Shown piece after piece: positions 14,184 to 33,857 of a DNA stretch of 64,000 nucleotides. The stretch lies in the NCBI GenBank assembly GCA_012646185.1, contig GCA_012646185.1_4706.1; one strand, written 5' to 3'. This DNA is from a phage. Position numbers and translations under genes: made by a program. The stretch's first letter is position 1. Each line of letters opens with the position of its first letter. The notes beneath the pieces are model-generated. The model saw only the letters and a list, made by a program, of their open reading frames with translations. It was not told the origin of the DNA and did not search any database.

Positions 14184-14992
14184 GGTGTTACAACAGCCTC
14201 TACTGACCATGGGAAGGTTTTCGCAATAACACCTTCCAGGAAGCGTTCAACTTCCGATTGCTCATACACCGAAAGCTTTTCAAACGGCGTTTGGTCTTCG
14301 GTTAAACCTACCGCATGAATAGGACCCAGGTCTTTAACCAGGGTAACTTCGCCTTTAACGCCTTCGCGCTTAACGATGATCGCGTGGTCATTAACCTTAG
14401 GATCGTACAGCACGCGCATCATGGTTACGGCGTCATCCGGTTCATGACCGAAATCGATGGCAACACGAGCATTCGTCCCTTCATCATCCAGAAGCTTGCT
14501 CAGCGCTTTACAACGGTCTTCAATCCAATCCAACGCAACCACGGTTTCTTGGCGTAGCTGAACCTCAACTTCTTTTCCTTGTTCGTCGATACGTTTCACG
14601 GTAACAAAATCGTGTAATAGGCGGTCAGGAAGGAGGGAAGCAATAAGCTCAACGTCGGGTTCAGGTTTTTCGTTTTCCAGAATGATAGTCGCTTGTGCGT
14701 CCAGATGTTCTTTAAAACGGATGTAACGTGTTAATCGCAGAACTTCATCTTGGGATTTTGCGTCTTCGGGAATAATCTCCGTCATGACGTTATAAATCTT
14801 TTCAGCGAACGTCGGAATTACGGTGATTGTAATTCGTGCTGGTGTACCACGCTCCTGGTACTCATCGGCTAACTTCTTCGCCATCCCGTTAAAATAAGTC
14901 TGGAGAAACGGTTGCTGCGTTAAAAACATTTTCTCCAGATCGGAATAGCGATGCTTGCGTGCATGGCCTAGCTTCTTCATGGGCTTTTTCAT
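14180..14992 (-). CDS. hypothetical acidic protein (270 aa)
   Basis: ATG with AAGGA SD (track start 14995 is TTG); no phosphoesterase (Mre11/SbcD) motifs seen. Confidence 0.55.
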   Translation of the reverse strand: MKKPMKKLGHARKHRYSDLEKMFLTQQPFLQTYFNGMAKKLADEYQERGTPARITITVIPTFAEKIYNVMTEIIPEDAKSQDEVLRLTRYIRFKEHLDAQATIILENEKPEPDVELIASLLPDRLLHDFVTVKRIDEQGKEVEVQLRQETVVALDWIEDRCKALSKLLDDEGTNARVAIDFGHEPDDAVTMMRVLYDPKVNDHAIIVKREGVKGEVTLVKDLGPIHAVGLTEDQTPFEKLSVYEQSEVERFLEGVIAKTFPWSVEAVVTP

Positions 14993-15013
14993 CAACAGAA
15001 ATCCTTATTTGTC

Positions 15014-17470
15014 TTAAATAATCGTGACGTGTTCGTTATATGTTTCAGGGAGAATGATGTTCGTTTTATCAAGAACCATACACTCGGCTTTACGGAACGA
15101 CGCATGGTTGATAACATAGTGGCTGATGAACCACACCTGGCTTACGCGGTGACCATCAACCAAACGACGAACAAAATCCATGGCATTAGATTGGTGCTGT
15201 GGATCAAATGTTGATGCGAATTCGTCTAACATCAACGGATAATCCGTGAACCCTTTGTAATGCATCATCGCGATGATGAACGCGATATTGATAATTTCCT
15301 TTTGTCCCTTACTCCCATAAACAATATCTTTTCGCGGTGTCGGATACTTCTCAGTTAAAAGCGGAAAACGATAGTTCAATCCTTGCGCGTCGATAGCACA
15401 CGGGAGTATCTGAAGTTGGTATTCCCAAATACTTGCAATGATGCCGTTCATGTACTCAACGAACGCGTTGATGGGACCCGCGATTGTTTCGGCAATCAAT
15501 CCGTTAGATGGACTTAACTCATCCAGAACAAGTTGTGCGTAACTGAGCTGTTCTTCCACCTCTTTTTGTGTCGTTTCCAACTGAGCCAGAAGCTGCTGGT
15601 CGGTTTTAGCTTCCTGTAACTGCTGTTCGACATGACTTATTCGGCGAACCGTATCAGACATCGCAGCACGTAACGATTTCGTGTAGAGGTGTTGCAGATA
15701 CTCTAACCACAGTTGCGTTAACGCTTTATCGCTGTTATCAGAACGTACCTGATCTTCCATAATCGCCGTAATGGTTTCCAATCTACCTTCCGTGGCTGTG
15801 ATAGCTTGTGTTAACCGCTCAACGGTTGTTAACAACTCTGTCCTGTTCTTATAAAGCAATTCTCGACGTTGCTGTAACGGTTCAACATCAACCGCTTGTA
15901 CCCGTTCGAGCATACCTTGAAGATGCTTCCGTTCCTGTTCGGCTTGTGTGTAACGCGCGAGTTTCTCAAACGCAAGCAACCAGTCATTAATGATTCCAAT
16001 GCTGCGGAATCCTAAACCGTTTTTACGTCCTTCTTCCAGCAGATTGTCCCACATGGGTTTAATGGCGTAATAATCTTTCGTCCAACGTGTTAACTGACGA
16101 TGCTGTTCCATCCAGAGCGTATAGCGCTGAACCTTCTCACTAAGCTCGGTTAACGATTTCTCCTGTTCTTCAACCCAGGCACGGCCCTTCTGAATACGTT
16201 GTTCAATACCCGCTTTGCTGGTCTTTTCTGTCTCACCAACATGAAAGCGATAATTGCATTTTGGACAGCTGGTCTGGGGTTGATGATTCAGGTGGTCAAG
16301 ATGCGCTTCCAAATCGGCTAACGCATGTTTCGCGTTACGCAAACGCATTCTTGCCGCCTCTTCCTCCTTGATGTAAGCTTCAGCATCGTAAACATGATAG
16401 GTGTTGTCGGTATCAATCCATTCTTGCAGTAATTCCGTTAACGGAGCCTGAACTTGCGTGAGCTGTTGTAAACAAACCGCAGCGTCCAGATTCATTGTTA
16501 AAAGCTCACCTGGATGATCTTGCTGAAGTTGTTCGTCTAAACGTGCAATGCGGGCTTTAATTTGATCGATATCACCTTCGCCAGACTGTTTCAACTGGTC
16601 AAGGATATTATCGATACCCAACAGCTCGTCAACCTGACTTTCGAGTTTTGCATTCGCATTCGCGAGTTGCTCTCTTAGTTCAGCCAGATTCTGCTGTTCT
16701 TGTTGCGATGTTCCTCCTTGGTAACGAACAACCGCACGAAGAAGCTCACGATTAAAATGATGGGCGCGTTGTGCGGATTCCAGAAGCTGTCGTTGATCAA
16801 CATCGCTATCGAATAACGGCAATCCCATCATCGCTTCGAGCGCTGAGCGTTGCTGTTTTAACTCTGCTTCCAATCCCTGGTGGTCGGTGCCGGTGTATTT
16901 CGCTTCGATGCGCTGTGATGTTTCAACCAACTTATTCAGTGTATGCTCATTCACCGCTTTCAGTGAACGTACTTGTTGCTTAACCACCTGAAACAACTCG
17001 AGTGCGTAATCGACGTTAACCGGACATATCTGCGTTAATCGTTCGCGACGTTTCATCGGTCCCATTTCGGTGAACTGGTAAGCCGTTTCGTAACCTAACA
17101 ACAAACGAATAGTGTCATCATTAAGTTCGAAATGTTCTTCGATCAGTTTCCACTGAGCGGGTTGTGTGCCACCACCATTCAGGTTCTCGCTGTCGTTAAC
17201 GTAGAACTCATGCTTAAACCCTTTTTCTAAACGACTGATAAGACGGTATTGCTTATTACGGTGTTCGCAGCGGTACTCGTAATACCCGTCTTTATCAAAA
17301 TCGGCACGCTCAGGAACGGTCGGATACAGCAAAGGCAATAGACTACTCTTACCCGAACCGTTGCTGCCTAAAATGAGTTGTACGGGATTATCTGGCCGGA
17401 TGACCAGCTCCCGAATCATCCCGGTATCAAAACGATTGAATCCACGTAAGTGGAGATAGGTGCATCGCAT
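15014..17470 (-). CDS. SbcC/Rad50-like SMC-family ATPase (818 aa)
   Basis: Walker A GSNGSGKSS ~36 aa from the chosen ATG, long heptad-rich middle with CPKC zinc-hook-like motif, signature-like SKGQKE, Walker B LMLDEF, H-loop FISHY. Confidence 0.8.
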   Translation of the reverse strand: MRCTYLHLRGFNRFDTGMIRELVIRPDNPVQLILGSNGSGKSSLLPLLYPTVPERADFDKDGYYEYRCEHRNKQYRLISRLEKGFKHEFYVNDSENLNGGGTQPAQWKLIEEHFELNDDTIRLLLGYETAYQFTEMGPMKRRERLTQICPVNVDYALELFQVVKQQVRSLKAVNEHTLNKLVETSQRIEAKYTGTDHQGLEAELKQQRSALEAMMGLPLFDSDVDQRQLLESAQRAHHFNRELLRAVVRYQGGTSQQEQQNLAELREQLANANAKLESQVDELLGIDNILDQLKQSGEGDIDQIKARIARLDEQLQQDHPGELLTMNLDAAVCLQQLTQVQAPLTELLQEWIDTDNTYHVYDAEAYIKEEEAARMRLRNAKHALADLEAHLDHLNHQPQTSCPKCNYRFHVGETEKTSKAGIEQRIQKGRAWVEEQEKSLTELSEKVQRYTLWMEQHRQLTRWTKDYYAIKPMWDNLLEEGRKNGLGFRSIGIINDWLLAFEKLARYTQAEQERKHLQGMLERVQAVDVEPLQQRRELLYKNRTELLTTVERLTQAITATEGRLETITAIMEDQVRSDNSDKALTQLWLEYLQHLYTKSLRAAMSDTVRRISHVEQQLQEAKTDQQLLAQLETTQKEVEEQLSYAQLVLDELSPSNGLIAETIAGPINAFVEYMNGIIASIWEYQLQILPCAIDAQGLNYRFPLLTEKYPTPRKDIVYGSKGQKEIINIAFIIAMMHYKGFTDYPLMLDEFASTFDPQHQSNAMDFVRRLVDGHRVSQVWFISHYVINHASFRKAECMVLDKTNIILPETYNEHVTII

Positions 17471-21407: not shown

Positions 21408-21707
21408 TTAAGGTTTAGGTTCCGTTTTGTATTGTGCGAGTAATGTGTTGATCTGCTCCCGTTGTTCTTTTAAGTATGCGGGAAGCTGGTCTTCCCGTAC
21501 CGTTCCGATTTCCAACGTGATGTACCAGCGTTGTTCGGAAGCCTGCCATTGAAAACTGCTCTGTAGCCGTAGGATGCTAGGATCACGTACCTTGCTTGCA
21601 CTGTAGTGATCGAACCAATCCAGGTATTCTGCTTTCCCTTCCTCATCGGCAACGTAACGCTGCACGCTGTTCTTCCCTTTGTTTTCGTATCCCGTTGCAC
21701 GTATCAT
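21408..21707 (-). CDS. hypothetical protein (99 aa)
   Basis: ATG overlapping the upstream stop (ATGA) with AGGAGA SD; preferred over the 58-nt-overlapping upstream start. Confidence 0.45.
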   Translation of the reverse strand: MIRATGYENKGKNSVQRYVADEEGKAEYLDWFDHYSASKVRDPSILRLQSSFQWQASEQRWYITLEIGTVREDQLPAYLKEQREQINTLLAQYKTEPKP

Positions 21708-22486
21708 GCGAACGTTTCTCCTGTAATGTGTTGCGGATGGCGTAGCATGGTAGCATCCCATTGTACGATCCGGCTCCGGCTTACCAGCATCATGACGGAT
21801 TCATCGTCAAGCCCTGGCTGCGCAACCGGCAACCAACGTTCGTTAAGCACCTTCGCTTCAACACGTTTCTTGCGGGGATTGTAGCGCACTTCGCTAACCC
21901 AAGCGAATCCAAGTGGATGCACAACCCGTGGATAATACATGCGAAGCAATTGATGCATCCGATCCGTTGCCTCCAGATTGCAATCCACCATGTAAGGTTT
22001 CACCATGGTAAGCTTTTTGGTGTAATACGTTCCAACGGTATGGTTACGCCAACTTGGCAAGGCATGATCCCCTTCTCTCAGTTTGCTATCCGAGTTCATC
22101 GGCCAGACCTGCTGTTTACCGGCCAGCATCGCGTACTGCCGATCAACGCAACGAACCTGATCGGCGAACAATGGATCCAGAACATCATCCACCGCACCCT
22201 TATTGCGATAACCGTGATGTACCACCAACCTGCTTGCGCTCATCGATGCGGGATGCTGGCTCTTATGCGCATACAGCCCACCGTCACCGCGAGGGTCGTA
22301 AAGATAGCCGCATGCGCCACGCCATATCACCTTGCCTACGGTTCTCTCGTTTTCAAGCAGCATCGTCGGCCCATCAAGCAAATTGGTGAACCACTGCACC
22401 TTCACGCATTCCGCTTGGACATGCTCAGGTAATGCCTGATACTCTTTTTGGGTGTATAAGGTATCAAAAATGATTTCATCGTTCAT
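21704..22486 (-). CDS. hypothetical protein (260 aa)
   Basis: ATG with GAGGA SD; first gene downstream of motif copy 2. Confidence 0.55.
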   Translation of the reverse strand: MNDEIIFDTLYTQKEYQALPEHVQAECVKVQWFTNLLDGPTMLLENERTVGKVIWRGACGYLYDPRGDGGLYAHKSQHPASMSASRLVVHHGYRNKGAVDDVLDPLFADQVRCVDRQYAMLAGKQQVWPMNSDSKLREGDHALPSWRNHTVGTYYTKKLTMVKPYMVDCNLEATDRMHQLLRMYYPRVVHPLGFAWVSEVRYNPRKKRVEAKVLNERWLPVAQPGLDDESVMMLVSRSRIVQWDATMLRHPQHITGETFA

Positions 22487-22568
22487 TTAAAAAGTTCCTC
22501 TGTTTTTCACGTTAATTAAACAACGTATTGATTTCTATTTGACGCAATACGAACATTGTACGTATGCA

Positions 22569-22593
22569 TCACTAAGGTAATATAGTCGTGAAA
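22569..22593 (-). promoter_or_regulatory. conserved 25-nt motif copy 2 (plus strand TCACTAAGGTAATATAGTCGTGAAA)
   Basis: ~83 nt upstream (minus orientation) of the 21704..22486 start. Confidence 0.5.
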
Positions 22594-23286
22594 GGATTTG
22601 TGTTACAGAAAGGGTTTTGTTGTGTTTTAAGAAGGGATGGATTTAGAAGAGGTGTTTCATGGAAGGTAAACGAGGATAGGTATTTTGATTTAAGTAAGTA
22701 AGATGTTATCTGTATTCGTTAAAAGTGTATTGTTTATCTTAGGTTATGTCTTATTGTTTAATCGTTTAATATTTTTATCTAAGTAGGTTTAACTCTATCT
22801 TGTTTGTATATTTAAATTAAATCAATAAGCTTATCTTCAAAACAATGGATAACATGTGTTTACTACCTTAACGGTAACACATGTCATCTGTGCATTACAC
22901 TCCGTTATCACTTCGTTACATGCTTATAAGTTGGATAACTCAAAAAAACATTTGTGATACTCTTCTTCACGTTGTTCATCAGAGTATCTCGTCTATACTC
23001 ATTGCATTCGTATACGACATAACCGTTATACGCTAACGCTACGCTTATAGCTTGATAACTCTAAGGATAAAAACATAAACTCGCTTCGCTCGTTTAGTTT
23101 TTCTTTTTCTTAGAGTTATCCTGTTGCTCGTCTCTAAAGGACTTCGCTCCTCCCCCGTCCCCCGAAGGGGCCGGAGTCGTGGAAATTTTACTTTCCAAAT
23201 ACATTTACAACATCTGTAAACTTTTACTCCAGGTACTTAATCTTATCATTAGAAATTATAAAGAGAAGAATAAACACAAACATAAA

Positions 23287-23318
23287 CCTTCCTCCAACCC
23301 AACAGGGAAGGAGGAAGG
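23287..23318. terminator. conserved CT/GA hairpin (minus-strand reading CCTTCCTCCTTCCC-TGTT-GGGTTGGAGGAAGG)
   Basis: Directly downstream of the 23335..24228 stop. Confidence 0.6.
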
Positions 23319-23334
23319 GAGAGCTTGATTTTAA

Positions 23335-24228
23335 TTAATCGGCGGTGTTATAACCGAATACTGCTTTACCGTAGGTGTGAGTACCGTTAGCTAACGACAG
23401 CACCAGCACATGGTTGTACGTAGCGTTAACGCCCTTGTCAGTAGACTCGGTGGTAGCACCGTTATAGACAAAGGTAGCCGTTTGCAGATTGGCTTTCAGC
23501 TCGGTGATGATCTCATCACTGACACCTGTCTGCTCTTTGATCAGCGTAGTCAGGTTACCTGCCAGGCTTGCATCGATATTTACTTCGTTGCCAGTAATAG
23601 CTTGTAAACCTGCGGTGTAAGTACTGAAGTCTAACGGATAGGTTAACAGACGTGCTGACGTTTTGGTACCATCGCCATCATCAACGTAGGTTAAGTTACC
23701 CAGGTTGGTAACCTTGATGATGTTAGCCAGATCCAGCGTGGTGTTATAAACTTTAACTTGAACAGAGCCATACCACGCCAACGAATCTTCTTTGGCTTCC
23801 AGGGTGATCGTCTGGATACCATGCTGGTCGAAGGTAACCGGCGTAGCTAACGTTTCGGCTTTGATGTCTTTATCTTTATCCAGGAACTTCTCACCGGTCG
23901 GCGTGATCATACCGTAGCGTTGAGCTACAAGGTCAACCACATCACCGATGGTGGTGTCAGCAGTAACGTTAACACGTACAGCGATTTTCTGGAACCACTT
24001 AGCCAGATCCAGACGATGGTAGGTAACATCGCGGTTATTGAAGTAAGGTGTACCATCACCAGGGCTAAGCGTTAAAGTTGCTTCTGGAGCAGAAGCGCTT
24101 TTGGATTTAAGAACGTATTTAAGATCACTGTATTGGAAGCTGGCACCAGTGTCGGCGTTGAGCTGATTGATCTCATCAACGATAAGTTGCCAAGGTGTTT
24201 TTAAAGTAAGCGATACTTGAGTTGCCAT
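23335..24228 (-). CDS. virion-type protein, paralog-family member (297 aa)
   Basis: ATG with GAGGT SD; shares Y-x-R-N, YxRLDL and LAWxGSV motifs with the 35294, 37116 and 37978 products; strongly host-optimised codon usage. Confidence 0.6.
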   Translation of the reverse strand: MATQVSLTLKTPWQLIVDEINQLNADTGASFQYSDLKYVLKSKSASAPEATLTLSPGDGTPYFNNRDVTYHRLDLAKWFQKIAVRVNVTADTTIGDVVDLVAQRYGMITPTGEKFLDKDKDIKAETLATPVTFDQHGIQTITLEAKEDSLAWYGSVQVKVYNTTLDLANIIKVTNLGNLTYVDDGDGTKTSARLLTYPLDFSTYTAGLQAITGNEVNIDASLAGNLTTLIKEQTGVSDEIITELKANLQTATFVYNGATTESTDKGVNATYNHVLVLSLANGTHTYGKAVFGYNTAD

Positions 24229-25968: not shown

Positions 25969-28017
25969 TCAAATACCCTTGGTTCCTTTCACGTGATGTG
26001 CGATTTCTTCAACCATTGCACGCAGAGCACGAAGCTGTTGGTCGTGTTCGTACCAACCACCTAACAGAACCCCGCTATACACCATGGTGTCAAGACTTAA
26101 CAGTCCTTTATCTGATACGTTGATCATTTCAGGGAACTGTTCTTGAACACGCTGTGCGATAACACCGATCTTCTCGACATCAGGATCGTAGTTGTGACGG
26201 AAACGGGCAAGCCCGCTGCGCGCCATTTCACGTAAACGTTCACTGAGAGATTCCGGATGATCTTTCAGATAACGGATGTCGTGTTTACTACGCTCATCCG
26301 AGCGAATGTAAGCGTTAGGAACATCGATATTGCTGTTGAAGTACAGCGCACTACCACCGCCTGCAGAGTTCCCCCAATAGAAGCGTGTGATCTCACCGCC
26401 GCCATTTTCCGTGATGATAACATGTTTACCTAAACGCGTACCACCATTACCATCAACGAAGACCAGTTTGTTTCCGCTGTAAGAACCCCAGAACAAGCGT
26501 GTATCGATGATGTGCGTCGCAGCGAGACGGGCGTTACGTGGTGTAGAATACACGGTGTTCACATCTTGCTGTGCATGCGCATCGGAAGCGATACCGTAGT
26601 TCTGTACGTTACCCAATCCTACCTGCGCTTTTGTAACAGCATGTGGGTTGTCTCGACGGTTAGCGTGAGCGTTAACCAGATCACCCGCTAATTTCTGAAT
26701 TGCCCAGTTGGTAGACTGTGGCGTCATGTAACGGTTCGTTGCAGAACCACCTTGCGCTTCAGCTTGGTTAGCGGTTGGATAGTTCTCAACACTTCCTAAC
26801 CCTACTTGTGCTTTAGACACTTGGTGTGGGTTATTCTTGTCAGCGATGTGTGCATTAAGCGGAACTAACGCAAAGGTCTCAATGGACGCTTTGGTTGTGT
26901 TCGGTGCCATTAATCGGTTAGCTGCAACACCGGCACGCGCTTCTTCTTCAGACGCCATTGGGTAGTCTTGCACATTCCCTAACCCAACCTGTGCTTTGGT
27001 CACCCTGTGTGGGTTGTTGTAATCGGCTTTATGCGCATTAAGTGGAATCAATGCGAACTGTTCGATCGCGGCAACGGTACGTAGCGGTGTCATGAAACGG
27101 TTGTTCGCTGTTCCGGCTTTCGCCTCATCATCCGAAGCGGTCGGGAAGTTATCAACGTTCCCAAGGTTAACCTGTGCTTTGGTGACGCTATGCGGGTTAT
27201 CCCGACGGTTAGCATGCGCGTCGACTAGATCGCCCGCCAGTTTAGCAATCGCCCATCCAACCGTTTGTGCGGTCATGTATCGGTCAGGTGCAGTACCGGC
27301 TTCTGCCTCCGCCTTGTTGGCGGTAGGATAGTTCTGTACGTTACCTAGTCCGACTTGGGCTTTTGTTACTTCGTGCGGGTTATCGGTACGGTTAGCATGC
27401 GCGTAATGCAGATCGGTCAGATCTTTATCCGCTGCTTGCATGTCTTTGCGTAGCTGATCGATTGCCGCCCAGAGACGGTTATCGGATGCGGCGTCACCGA
27501 TAAGTATTGCGGCTTTCAGTGAATAGATCGCTAAGCAAAGATGTTCGGTACCGTAGATAGCACTAACGTGGTGGATGTGTGGTTCAGGCGGATAGAGTTC
27601 CGGTTTGTTCTTGATGTCATCCCAGTTGATCGGACGATCGTCAAGTTTGAGTTCTTCGATAGCCTGATATAACGCGTCAATAAGACTTACGTAAACACCA
27701 CCGATGATACGATAGTCGTTAACTAATGTACCCTCGATATCATCGTTGATAATGGCGATGGCTGCACAGATTTCTTTACCCGCGTAAAGCGTTGCATCCT
27801 GATACAAGAAGATGGGTTTATAATCCACGCCTCGTACCAGTGTCTTACCGGTAAGCTTTTCAGTGATGACCAGACTTTCGGTGAAGAACGGTCCGCCATC
27901 GAGGGCGTAACATTTATTCTCGGTTCGTGGAACGGTATGCTCTTCACCAACGATGTGGTTGCTGGCGAGTGTACCGGTCCAGTCCTCGGGGTACTTCAGG
28001 GTAATTGGTGTCGACAT
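25969..28017 (-). CDS. tail fibre protein with phage fibre repeats and C-terminal S74-like intramolecular chaperone (682 aa)
   Basis: Five copies of NPHxVTKAQVGLGNVxNY repeat; C-terminal SDERSK motif resembling the autoproteolytic chaperone domain of endosialidase-type fibres. Confidence 0.85.
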   Translation of the reverse strand: MSTPITLKYPEDWTGTLASNHIVGEEHTVPRTENKCYALDGGPFFTESLVITEKLTGKTLVRGVDYKPIFLYQDATLYAGKEICAAIAIINDDIEGTLVNDYRIIGGVYVSLIDALYQAIEELKLDDRPINWDDIKNKPELYPPEPHIHHVSAIYGTEHLCLAIYSLKAAILIGDAASDNRLWAAIDQLRKDMQAADKDLTDLHYAHANRTDNPHEVTKAQVGLGNVQNYPTANKAEAEAGTAPDRYMTAQTVGWAIAKLAGDLVDAHANRRDNPHSVTKAQVNLGNVDNFPTASDDEAKAGTANNRFMTPLRTVAAIEQFALIPLNAHKADYNNPHRVTKAQVGLGNVQDYPMASEEEARAGVAANRLMAPNTTKASIETFALVPLNAHIADKNNPHQVSKAQVGLGSVENYPTANQAEAQGGSATNRYMTPQSTNWAIQKLAGDLVNAHANRRDNPHAVTKAQVGLGNVQNYGIASDAHAQQDVNTVYSTPRNARLAATHIIDTRLFWGSYSGNKLVFVDGNGGTRLGKHVIITENGGGEITRFYWGNSAGGGSALYFNSNIDVPNAYIRSDERSKHDIRYLKDHPESLSERLREMARSGLARFRHNYDPDVEKIGVIAQRVQEQFPEMINVSDKGLLSLDTMVYSGVLLGGWYEHDQQLRALRAMVEEIAHHVKGTKGI
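26520..27420. repeat. five tandem ~183-bp coding repeats (61-aa fibre repeat)
   Basis: GTGGGTT/GCGGGTT landmarks recur at ~183-bp spacing. Confidence 0.7.
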
Positions 28018-31703: not shown

Positions 31704-33857
31704 TTATAACGTTTCGAAGTCGGTTGCTTTGATAACCGCGTTGAAGTTGGCAAGGAATTCCTTAAGCAATGCTTGGAAGACATCACGAAACGCTGTGTTC
31801 GTCTGCAAGCTGGTTAAATAATCGTTCTTAAGGTAATCGCTCAGCTTACCGATCTTCTGCATCTTCTCGCCGTCTTGGTTCTCTCCAGGTTCTTGGCTGT
31901 TGATGTTAACCCATTTGATCCCTTCGAGATCGCCATCGGCAAGGAAGTTAGCGGGCGTCTCATCGTCGTTCAGGATTTTAATCGTGTCGCTGGATTCAAT
32001 ACCACCGTAAGCTTCCAGAAGCTGGTTGACTGTTAGCTTATTAGTGTTGATTGAACCATTGACACCATCGATACCGATGCCTGCACCTGTGATGGATGTC
32101 GCCGAAAGATCGATTGGTCCGGTTAACTTACCCCCGTTGATCGGTAACGCACCAACTTGCTCTGCGGTGTGTGTATGGTCAGCTAACGCCGCAAACGCCG
32201 TGATAGACTTATATGTCGAATACGGCGTCATATACGCTGATTGGTTGGTGTTGTCAGCCGCTTCAGTATCGGTAGCGACATTAAAGTTCTGCACGTTGCT
32301 GAGACCGACCTGCACCTTCGTTACTTCATGCGGGTTGTTCTTATTGACAACGTGTGCTGCAAAACCGTCACCGGCTAAAGCAGTGATTGCCGCTTTTGTC
32401 GCAGCCGGTGTCATATAGCGGTTGGTTGCTTCACCCGTTTGCGCCTCTTCGTCGGAAGCAACAGGATAGTTCTCAACGCTCCCCAACCCAACCTGAGATT
32501 TTGTTACTTGGTGTGGGTTTTCGGTATTCGCAATATGACTACTGAACCCTTGACCCGCCAGTTGCTCGATTGCGTAACGAACAAGTATTGGCGTCATGTA
32601 CTTGTTGTTAACCTGACCATCGATAGCTTCTTGGGTGGTGGCAACCCCGAAGTTTTGCACGCTCCCCAACCCAACTTGCGCTTTCGTAACAGCGTGAGGG
32701 TTATTGGTGTTACCGATGTGATCGGTAACCGTTGGGGTGATTAATCCTGCGATAGCGGCTGCCGTGGTCGCAGGGGTCATGTATTTATCGTTAGCAACAC
32801 CCGCAGCAGCTTCTACGTTAGATGCTACACCGTAGTTCAATACATTTCCTAACCCAACTTGAGCCTTGGTTACCCCGTGGGGGTTGTTCCTGTCTCCGGT
32901 ATGGGTTGTCAACGTAGCGTTGACATGATCGATACGCGTACTTAAGCCGTCGGTGATTGCTTTGATTGCGGCTCGTACACCCGCTGGTGTTGTGTACAGA
33001 TTGGTGGCCGTACCGGTAATGGTTGCATTACTATCGGCTGTACCGTAGTTCTCAACGTTTCCGAGTCCCACCTGGGCTTTCGTTACCTTGTGTGGGTTGT
33101 TATAGTTGCTGATGTGTGCAGCAGCACTATCACCACTCAGGTTAGCGATCATCTTACGCGTCATCGCCAACGTCATGTACAGATTTTCACCGATGGTTTC
33201 CAGATCGCTCTCGGTCGCCGTTGTGAAGTTCTGAACATTCCCCAAACCAACTTGTGCCTTGGTTACGCCATGTGGGTTATCGCGACGATTCTCGTGCTGC
33301 AGCAATGCGGTCATTGCTTTATTGAACCCTTCTTCAAGCGGTTCTTTCAATGATTCGATTGCAGCCACCACATCGTCCCACGTCATTGTGTCGGTTTCGA
33401 CATTATGTTGGTGGTTGATTGGCGGGAATACGGAAGGAACGTCAGCAACCTTTTCCCAGAACGTAACGCGGGGATCGTAAAGGTTGTTGGCTAAAACGTT
33501 AAGAATTTGTTGTTGATCAAGTGTAAACTCACCCCCCAGTGAATAGTAGTTCAGTTGCAACTGTCCACTGAATGCGGTGTCCAACAGCATGATGGAACCG
33601 TATAATTCCAGGCCGGTCAGCGCAGCCATGGCACGGAAGGGGTGAGTGCATAAAAAGTCAACGCCTTCTTCCAGATACGCGTTTGTTTCAGGGTTGTAGA
33701 TCTTTAACCCATTACGAAAATAGGGTGCGTATTTAGGAACGAGAAAGTTAAATCCGGTCCCCGTGGAAGGACGGACAGTGACGAGTTCTTCTGGAACCCA
33801 TGCGCCATCCAAATTCCCCTGCGGGTTATACGGAAGGCGTTTAATTTCATCTGTCAT
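31704..33857 (-). CDS. tail fibre protein with phage fibre repeats (717 aa)
   Basis: At least six copies of NPHxVTKAQVGLGNVxNF repeat. Confidence 0.85.
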   Translation of the reverse strand: MTDEIKRLPYNPQGNLDGAWVPEELVTVRPSTGTGFNFLVPKYAPYFRNGLKIYNPETNAYLEEGVDFLCTHPFRAMAALTGLELYGSIMLLDTAFSGQLQLNYYSLGGEFTLDQQQILNVLANNLYDPRVTFWEKVADVPSVFPPINHQHNVETDTMTWDDVVAAIESLKEPLEEGFNKAMTALLQHENRRDNPHGVTKAQVGLGNVQNFTTATESDLETIGENLYMTLAMTRKMIANLSGDSAAAHISNYNNPHKVTKAQVGLGNVENYGTADSNATITGTATNLYTTPAGVRAAIKAITDGLSTRIDHVNATLTTHTGDRNNPHGVTKAQVGLGNVLNYGVASNVEAAAGVANDKYMTPATTAAAIAGLITPTVTDHIGNTNNPHAVTKAQVGLGSVQNFGVATTQEAIDGQVNNKYMTPILVRYAIEQLAGQGFSSHIANTENPHQVTKSQVGLGSVENYPVASDEEAQTGEATNRYMTPAATKAAITALAGDGFAAHVVNKNNPHEVTKVQVGLSNVQNFNVATDTEAADNTNQSAYMTPYSTYKSITAFAALADHTHTAEQVGALPINGGKLTGPIDLSATSITGAGIGIDGVNGSINTNKLTVNQLLEAYGGIESSDTIKILNDDETPANFLADGDLEGIKWVNINSQEPGENQDGEKMQKIGKLSDYLKNDYLTSLQTNTAFRDVFQALLKEFLANFNAVIKATDFETL
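32180..33305. repeat. about six tandem ~183-bp coding repeats (fibre repeat)
   Basis: Periodic recurrence of the repeat at the DNA level, similar to 26520..27420. Confidence 0.7.

Follow-up and report, generated by a model that had tools for sequence, protein, structure and literature searches.

The subject of this work is a gene-free region of 848 nucleotides (nt; positions 22487–23334) in a stretch of 64,000 nt of phage DNA (contig GCA_012646185.1_4706.1), which we refer to as the window, and above all an ultra-conserved core of about 300 nt within it (22942–23246, minus strand), a candidate gene for a structured non-coding RNA (ncRNA). The sole DNA match to the 848-nt query was Escherichia phage vB_EcoM_Goslar, with 91.3% identity over the full length and no annotated feature beneath. 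Overall, the window is approximately 93–97% identical to Goslar, and judged by this identity its source is a Goslar-like nucleus-forming jumbo phage (Chimalliviridae). Goslar is the main Escherichia coli model for nucleus-forming jumbo phages, and its largest intergenic region is unannotated. This homologous gap of 854 bp, at 14,972–15,825 of MK327938 with the core at 15,428–15,743, is the largest of the 237-kb genome, and the most AT-rich 300-nt segments of Goslar fall in it (71.7% AT versus a genome mean of about 53%).

The gap is bounded by two open reading frames (ORFs) on the minus strand. ORF 23335–24228 is homologous to gp22 of Goslar, a DUF7941 fibre protein encoded by a late gene and abundant in the virion (about 580 copies per virion). 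ORF 21704–22486 is the gp21 homologue, the first of eight small ORFs which form an early operon. Since the genes on either side are both encoded on the minus strand, the region has to be read on this strand, from the gp22 stop through 848 nt to the gp21 start. Replication genes do not adjoin the gap. The sole ORF of at least 50 amino acids within it (22881–23036, plus strand, 51 amino acids) is disrupted by indels in relatives and is frameshifted in Goslar. Once this non-conserved ORF is discounted, the gap is gene-free and the longest in the window, as had been claimed in a first-pass annotation made from the letters alone. In minus-strand order, the region is a composite of gp22 terminator, core, T-run, optional hairpin, repeat array, CU-rich block, early promoter and 5' untranslated region (5'UTR).

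Relatives were gathered with gp22 as anchor from IMG/VR, from JGI and ENA metagenomes, and from contigs with gp22 homologues in a large protein collection. The resulting set consists of 19 distinct copies and two later variants (gp22 amino acid identity 75–94%), as well as two members of a sister clade (gp22 about 52%). All genomes of the Goslar clade have kept a gap of 600–950 nt at the locus. One of them, L009, represents a natural minimal version with terminator, core, CU-rich block and promoter. In the sister clade (L024, Logan SRR33371455; L032), the gp22 terminator is followed directly by the early-promoter motif and one or two small ORFs, and then by Tmk, RuvC and SbcC in an orientation inverted relative to Goslar; the non-coding module and the eight-ORF operon are both absent at the syntenic position. 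The other three copies of the early motif in the window are located only 25–45 nt behind a terminator, which indicates that about 730 nt are an insertion peculiar to this locus and clade.

A search for similar DNA in other cultured phages, PLSDB plasmids, complete E. coli genomes and GTDB species representatives retrieved only Goslar itself. An exact-word scan of IMG/VR with two core words matched only three Goslar-type contigs, and further IMG/VR matches to GATGAACAACGTGAAGAAG were discarded as chance coding matches (DEQREE). On one ENA scaffold (L046, ERZ16268183 scaffold_1860), the sequence is identical to that of L045 for 1,425 nt past gp22 and then changes to a bacterial SBP_bac_6 gene inside the gp21 homologue. 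This gene was rejected as a real neighbour, the scaffold being chimeric. In the literature, we came upon no paper that describes an RNA or an origin at the gp22–gp21 locus; the published Goslar RNA sequencing data had been analysed per annotated gene only.

The conservation of the core far exceeds that of its surroundings. Among the 17 sequences with complete gp22, 14 of 270 core columns are polymorphic, compared with 231 of 301 third-codon positions of the adjacent gp22 gene. Pairwise identity is 96–99% in the core where gp22 third positions are at 56–90%, and the relatives most distant from the window (56–63% at gp22 third positions) still have 99% in the core. The polymorphism is concentrated at the 5' edge (columns 1–27) and in a single 9-nt tip (columns 247–255). 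At the other end, conservation stops just past a run of six to nine U residues (22942–22948), with which the core ends. The core is single-copy in Goslar, and its distance from the early promoter varies freely among relatives, between 120 and 350 nt. Two haplotype groups differ at the edges of the core and recombine inside it (L028, L035), which indicates that the invariant centre is due to long-term purifying selection and not to a recent sweep. A 300-nt element whose evolution is over 10 times slower than that of synonymous sites nearby almost certainly has a function.

A consensus fold was obtained with RNAalifold on the alignment of the 19 sequences (A3). It comprises 86 pairs in 13 helices (about 9–13 hairpins), and 99.7% of the cells are standard pairs. 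As a control, the partners were slid by 1–3 columns, which left 39–52% pairing, and none of 500 shuffles reached the observed pairing or covariation score. Compared with dinucleotide shuffles, the fold has a z-score of −5.9 for 435 nt and of −4.3 for 316 nt of the minus strand. In the other 343 nt of the gap, folding does not exceed chance level (z = −1.3). Four pairs change on both sides (19 cells), in sequences that are few, related and recombining, and with one variant that breaks a pair. The double-compensatory pairs 248:254 and 249:253 occur as AU..AU, AC..GU, GC..GU and GC..GC; they change from A-U/U-A to G-C/C-G, with G.U and C-G as intermediates.

The same pairs were read on both strands. 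Mismatches number 5 on the minus strand, where there are 130 G.U cells, and 133 on the plus strand, and the alifold energy is −79.6 kcal/mol for the minus strand versus −62.3 for the plus strand. All single-side changes in the well-supported hairpins are wobble-compatible on the minus strand only. Mismatch counts and energies identify the sense strand of the flanking genes as the probable functional single strand.

Several hairpins of the core can be described individually. H4 (23203–23221, minus strand as for all that follow; GUUUACA-GAUGU-UGUAAAU) has a change from U-A to U.G in L028, L033 and L041, while H5 (23180–23197; UGGAAA-GUAAAA-UUUCCA) is invariant in all sequences. H6 (23153–23176) has a UUCG loop and is the GC-rich hairpin already noted in the first-pass annotation; its pairs 80:101 and 81:100 alternate between C-G, U.G and U-A. 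In L009 (3864–3883), a G.A mismatch of H6 is replaced by U-A and the loop is inverted from UUCG to CGAA with the stem being kept. This loop inversion resembles a template switch or a flip at an inverted repeat. The long hairpin H8/H9 (23055–23119) has 24 bp and a GC-GAA-GC tip (23083–23089), and is invariant in all 19 sequences. The region of H10–H12 (22991–23051), which carries the hypervariable 9-nt tip (23000–23008), shows the double-compensatory changes, and its exact fold is uncertain; in H12, U-A changes to U.G among relatives. H13 (22956–22988) consists of GAUACUCU, an invariant 17-nt loop and AGAGUAUC, and is followed by CACAAAUG and the U-run. Mini-hairpins of the type GC-GNA-GC recur in the core, at 23083–23089 and at other sites. 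Two lineages have independently mutated towards GCGAAGC, from AUGCAAU at the hypervariable tip (L009-type) and from GCGUAGC in L025.

The fold also bears on three repeats of the GGATAACTC type which had been proposed to resemble DnaA boxes. The repeats exist, at 22933 (plus strand), 23053 (plus strand, TGATAACTC) and 23113 (minus strand). Their number is close to chance, as 15 matches with up to one mismatch are found in the window versus 10.8 expected, and two of the three copies are the arms of one long hairpin, H8/H9. The DnaA box TTATNCACA itself, with up to one mismatch, is found 57 times in the window versus 62.4 expected, and only one of these matches is in the region (TAATGCACA, 22889–22897). 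The GC skew, proposed as a check, has no cumulative inflection at 22–23 kb of the window. In the whole Goslar genome the curve reaches its minimum near 214 kb and stays flat over the first 100 kb, a span that includes the locus at 15 kb; there is no inflection at the locus.

Outside the core, the first feature in the direction of reading is the terminator hairpin of the gp22 gene (23287–23318, minus strand), followed by UUUAUGUUU and kept in all relatives. It belongs to a family of six near-identical hairpins, CCCTCCTCC...GGAGGAGGG, at gene ends (7513, 23287, 25113, 35253, 50784 and 55583), which usually have TT(C)TATG(C/T) next to them. The word TTTATGC(C/T)G, one of those most strongly enriched in the upstream regions of Goslar, could also serve as a late start signal of the TATG type. 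The idea that contig ends cluster at the locus, as would be expected at a genome terminus, was rejected; the breaks fall at the repeated terminator hairpins and at 183-nt tail-fibre repeats. Tandem repeat units of 183 nt are common to two tail-fibre-like genes (26558–27438 and 32267–33281), and some metagenome contigs end within these genes or close to them, so that assemblies may be interrupted there by the repeats. Between terminator and core there is a T-rich spacer (23247–23286, minus strand) which varies in sequence and length among relatives. A promoter of a core RNA, if there is one, must be located in this spacer or in the first approximately 25 nt of the core.

The core is followed by the part of the region that had been regarded as the AT-rich core of a candidate origin. 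The inverted repeat ACATGTGTT, the AT-rich stretch, the TTATC pentamers and the GC-rich hairpin were all found about where they had been reported. With the exception of the last, they fall in the part which is variable or deleted in relatives. The inverted repeat forms an optional 13-bp hairpin (22848–22888, minus strand; arms 22848–22860 and 22876–22888) and is deleted in L005, L008 and L009. The AT-rich array (22700–22845, minus strand) is built of direct AGATAA(A/C) repeats, which read TTATCT on the plus strand at 22706, 22734, 22775 and 22831, with an AGATAG at 22795–22800. Four of the 22 copies of TTATCT in the 64 kb are located here within 200 nt and in one orientation only, and the cluster is the densest of AGATAA in the window and in Goslar. 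Among relatives, the array has zero to seven irregularly spaced copies and is absent in L009. The TTATC-rich DNA to which attention had been drawn is the dispensable part of the region. An AT-rich unwinding element as expected for an origin is not retained in all relatives, being deleted in L009, and the whole of the non-coding module is absent at the syntenic site of the sister clade.

Adjacent to the array is a G-poor, CU-rich block (22594–22699, minus strand), located just upstream of the promoter and containing the repeats CCCUUCUUAAAACACAA and CCCUUUCUGUAACACAA 22 nt apart. It is kept in all relatives including the minimal L009, is unique to the promoter at 22575–22593, the other three early promoters being without one, and looks like a set of operator sites. 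The promoter motif TTTCACGACTATATTACCT (22575–22593, minus strand), of the early (virion RNA polymerase) type, is the core of a 25-nt motif of which one copy had correctly been assigned to the region (22569–22594). The early motif TTTCACGRCTAYATTACCT has four copies in the window versus 0.07 expected, all of them on the minus strand, upstream of and facing minus-strand genes, and in Goslar no upstream word is more enriched than CTATATTAC. Early promoters of chimalliviruses are AT-rich motifs centred near −10 (PMC7598289), and the motif described here is likewise a repeated AT-rich motif located upstream of early operons and oriented to them. The proposal of a multi-promoter control region is partly right, in that the small-ORF operon is driven by one early-promoter motif, upstream of which lies the conserved CU-rich block. 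The remainder of the gap is the 88-nt 5'UTR with the ribosome-binding site CAGAGGAA of the first early-operon gene (22487–22574, minus strand; ATG at 22486), conserved among relatives.

The gene that follows is hypervariable, as expected for a host-interaction or anti-defence gene. The 5' half of the gp21 homologue (21990–22486, minus strand) is 44–69% identical to Goslar with the DNA on either side at 93–100%, and the protein is 60.5% identical overall. Elsewhere in Goslar, the second-largest gap (MK327938, 82470–83288; L037, 32470–33288) adjoins a NUMOD1/HNH endonuclease gene, downstream of a gene for a DNA-polymerase exonuclease domain, and is probably an unannotated intron/exon region.

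The core was compared with known RNA families and examined for coding capacity, signals and targets. The 64-kb window has no Rfam match at gathering score. When E-values up to 10 were admitted over 22400–23400, the core remained without a match, and one spurious match to a TrxA thermometer was obtained in the 5'UTR (18 bits versus 58 required). Scans for transfer RNAs (tRNAs) and transfer-messenger RNAs detected none. A coding function of the core was rejected: it has two separate 1-nt indels, its ORFs are without a ribosome-binding site, and PHROG gave no match. Scans for sigma-70 promoters and simple terminators yielded sites no more numerous than in shuffles. When enriched words were sought in 145 upstream regions of Goslar, the early motif, words from terminators, TTTATGC(C/T)G and ribosome-binding sites came up, but nothing in common with the spacer upstream of the core. 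Within Goslar, the core has no antisense target of at least 14 nt and no paralogue, and the best match has 16 nt in direct orientation (E = 0.06). At its 3' end, the core overlaps a mini-ORF (22940–22975, minus strand; AUG-UUU-UUU-UGA, in relatives MVF* or longer). In front of it is AACGUGAAGAAGAG, which directly repeats the ribosome-binding region of gp21, AACGUGAAAAACAGAGG. The mini-ORF may be left over from a duplicated start of translation, or may be a tiny leader peptide.

The best explanation for the core is a gene for a highly structured ncRNA that has not been described before and is specific to the Goslar clade, an assignment to which we give about an even chance. An untranslated RNA had been mentioned as a last option in the first-pass annotation; of the options given there it fits best, and the selected part can now be specified as the 300-nt structured core, which had not been delimited. 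The RNA would be transcribed on its own from the minus strand, starting in or just past the spacer behind the gp22 terminator and ending at the U-run past the last hairpin, with a probable length of 300–350 nt. It would fold into about nine hairpins connected by invariant single-stranded linkers and may act in trans, as a scaffold or decoy that binds protein rather than as an antisense regulator. A scaffold or decoy is favoured because loops and linkers are as invariant as stems, because an antisense target of at least 14 nt is lacking in the phage, and because the core goes together with a hypervariable early operon which the sister clade lacks. Being encoded directly upstream of this operon and, like it, missing from the sister clade, the RNA may belong to an accessory early or host-interaction module. 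The rest of the gap, with gp22 terminator, optional hairpin, AGATAA array, CU-rich block, early promoter and 5'UTR, is ordinary or dispensable. There is precedent, as chimalliviruses make ncRNAs (PMC11512511; PMC13282480). If it proves to be an RNA, the core would be larger than any other conserved structured ncRNA proposed for a chimallivirus, and would provide a handle on RNA biology in a phage which separates transcription from translation.

A number of observations weigh against this assignment. Both strands of the core beat shuffles (z = −4.3 for minus, −5.3 for plus), so that z-scores alone are uninformative as to the strand, and the fold of the core as single-stranded DNA beats them as well (z = −4.6). 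The covariation consists of four pairs in close, recombining relatives, and relatedness alone can exceed the shuffle control. In the variant L041, a predicted A-U pair has become G.G, and in columns 204–264 the fold is ambiguous, with an alternative fold existing. No promoter was identified for the core; TATG, the phiKZ-type late signal, follows the terminator in the spacer but is not conserved in L026, L028 and L033. The 3' end, with AU-rich stem, 17-nt loop, 8-nt spacer and U-run, is not a canonical intrinsic terminator. The invariance of loops and linkers exceeds what a structure needs and would also fit a protein-bound DNA element. Finally, GC-GNA-GC mini-hairpins such as GCGAAGC are best known as very stable DNA hairpins.

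The last two points lead to a cis-acting DNA element, an origin or packaging site operating via single-stranded or cruciform hairpins and protein-binding repeats, which we regard as unlikely. It would account for loops as invariant as stems, for a core that folds well as DNA, and for recurrent mini-hairpins with two lineages having moved towards GCGAAGC. It would also suit the location in the largest gap of Goslar, which contains the most AT-rich DNA of the genome, and the four to seven direct AGATAA repeats, uniform in orientation and densest in the genome. Goslar replication is reported to need the RNase H activity of Rhc (PMC13648698). Such an element is, however, difficult to reconcile with the AT-rich array being variable and missing from L009, with the sister clade having no comparable non-coding DNA at the syntenic site, and with a locus that shows no skew inflection (the genome-wide minimum being near 214 kb) and has no replication genes adjacent. 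Furthermore, the substitutions keep pairing on one strand only, which is not required of a double-stranded protein-binding site. One version is a transcription-primed origin of the ColE1 RNA II, T4 oriF or T7 type, with a structured pre-primer RNA that runs into the AT-rich stretch and is processed by the phage RNase H-clamp, which would agree with the reported requirement for RNase H activity. For this version, as for an iteron origin, the array is irregularly spaced, its copies drop to zero, and no promoter was found upstream. If a DNA element is involved, the core would be a candidate for the origin or packaging signal.

Somewhat more doubtful is a purely regulatory spacer, in which the hairpins are a read-through barrier or insulator between late gp22 and the early operon, the CU-rich block and the AGATAA repeats are operators, and no stand-alone RNA is made. 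The region does lie between a highly expressed late gene and an early promoter, its hairpins are all in the sense of transcription, and the CU-rich block with its 22-nt-spaced repeats is found only at the early promoter of the gp21 operon. A barrier, however, requires stems, and not 300 nt of invariant loops and linkers as well. The other three early promoters manage with a single terminator 25–45 nt upstream, and free variation of the distance between core and promoter is hard to explain on this basis.

We consider it improbable that the core acts as the structured pre-primer or organiser of a transcription-primed origin inside the phage nucleus, or else represents a new class of trans-acting RNA which manipulates host or nuclear-shell machinery. 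In the pre-primer version, the minus-strand transcript would fold into the hairpin array and enter the neighbouring AT-rich DNA; cleavage by the RNase H-clamp of the phage (Rhc) would then allow it to prime the split phage DNA polymerase. This would be the first origin mapped for any chimallivirus.

Conservation without function, as in a recently spread or gene-converted segment or the remnant of a mobile element, is very improbable. Genomes of the Goslar clade are mosaic and have other stretches of 100% identity, and the module is clade-specific. The two haplotypes of the core are old, however: they differ at the edges (30% in columns 1–27, six of nine positions at the tip), are 98–99% identical in the centre and recombine within. 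Changes preserve the structure, and terminal repeats or paralogous copies are lacking.

The chances of a small protein gene are poorer still, be it the 36-amino-acid ORF 23094–23204 (minus strand) or the mini-ORF of three to nine codons (AUG-UUU-UUU-stop) at the 3' end of the core. The former is intact in all relatives, and the latter is preceded by AACGUGAAGAAGAG with its resemblance to the gp21 ribosome-binding region. However, the 36-amino-acid ORF has no Shine-Dalgarno sequence before it and no PHROG match, and its substitutions, which are as often non-synonymous as synonymous, coincide with stem compensation. In addition, conservation runs well past both of its ends and 1-nt indels occur elsewhere in the core, while the mini-ORF varies in length and stop codon. 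A host-initiator origin with DnaA boxes, the headline of the first-pass annotation, is hardly credible: GAGTTATCC has TTATCC in common with the DnaA-box consensus and AT-rich DNA is nearby, but TTATNCACA matches occur at chance level, the GGATAACTC copies are hairpin arms, a skew inflection is lacking, and chimalliviruses replicate inside a protein shell which excludes most host proteins.

The candidate ncRNA may be compared with several known systems. The ncRNAs of chimalliviruses, namely phiKZ ncRNAs, 201phi2-1 small RNA sRNA005 and the phiKZ gp182-leader sRNA, are likewise structured, encoded in intergenic regions or 5'UTRs, and conserved among relatives (PMC11512511). They differ in being shorter than 250 nt and mostly 5'UTR fragments, with mapped start and stop sites and conservation by position across genera. 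The core, in contrast, has about 300 nt, is located upstream of the promoter and so is no leader, is restricted to the Goslar clade and has no sequence match in other cultured phages. GOLLD, ROOL and similar Rfam families are also phage-carried multi-hairpin RNAs that were recognised by conservation and covariation. Compared with these, the core has no Rfam match even at E-values up to 10, is smaller and has no adjacent tRNAs, and its covariation is thin since all known copies are close relatives.

Among origins, the transcription-primed systems (ColE1 RNA II, T4 oriF/oriG, the T7 primary origin) share with the locus a structured transcript, here putative, or promoter and AT-rich, easily melted DNA downstream; RNase H is reported to be involved in Goslar replication. 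In contrast to these systems, no promoter was recognised at the locus, L009 does without the AT-rich part, a skew signal is absent and there is no homologue at the position in the sister clade. With bacterial oriC it has AT-rich DNA beside repeated short motifs in common, whereas DnaA boxes are not enriched and the repeats, being hairpin arms or AGATAA units, have no relation to TTATNCACA. For the putative action of the core RNA, 6S RNA and the prohead RNA (pRNA) of phi29 offer an analogy, and of action only: although neither the long bubble-containing helix of the one nor the three-way junction of the other was recognised in the core, and Rfam was negative, both are stand-alone, abundant, structured RNAs of 170–200 nt which bind a protein machine, and phi29 pRNA is phage-encoded and adjoins early promoters.

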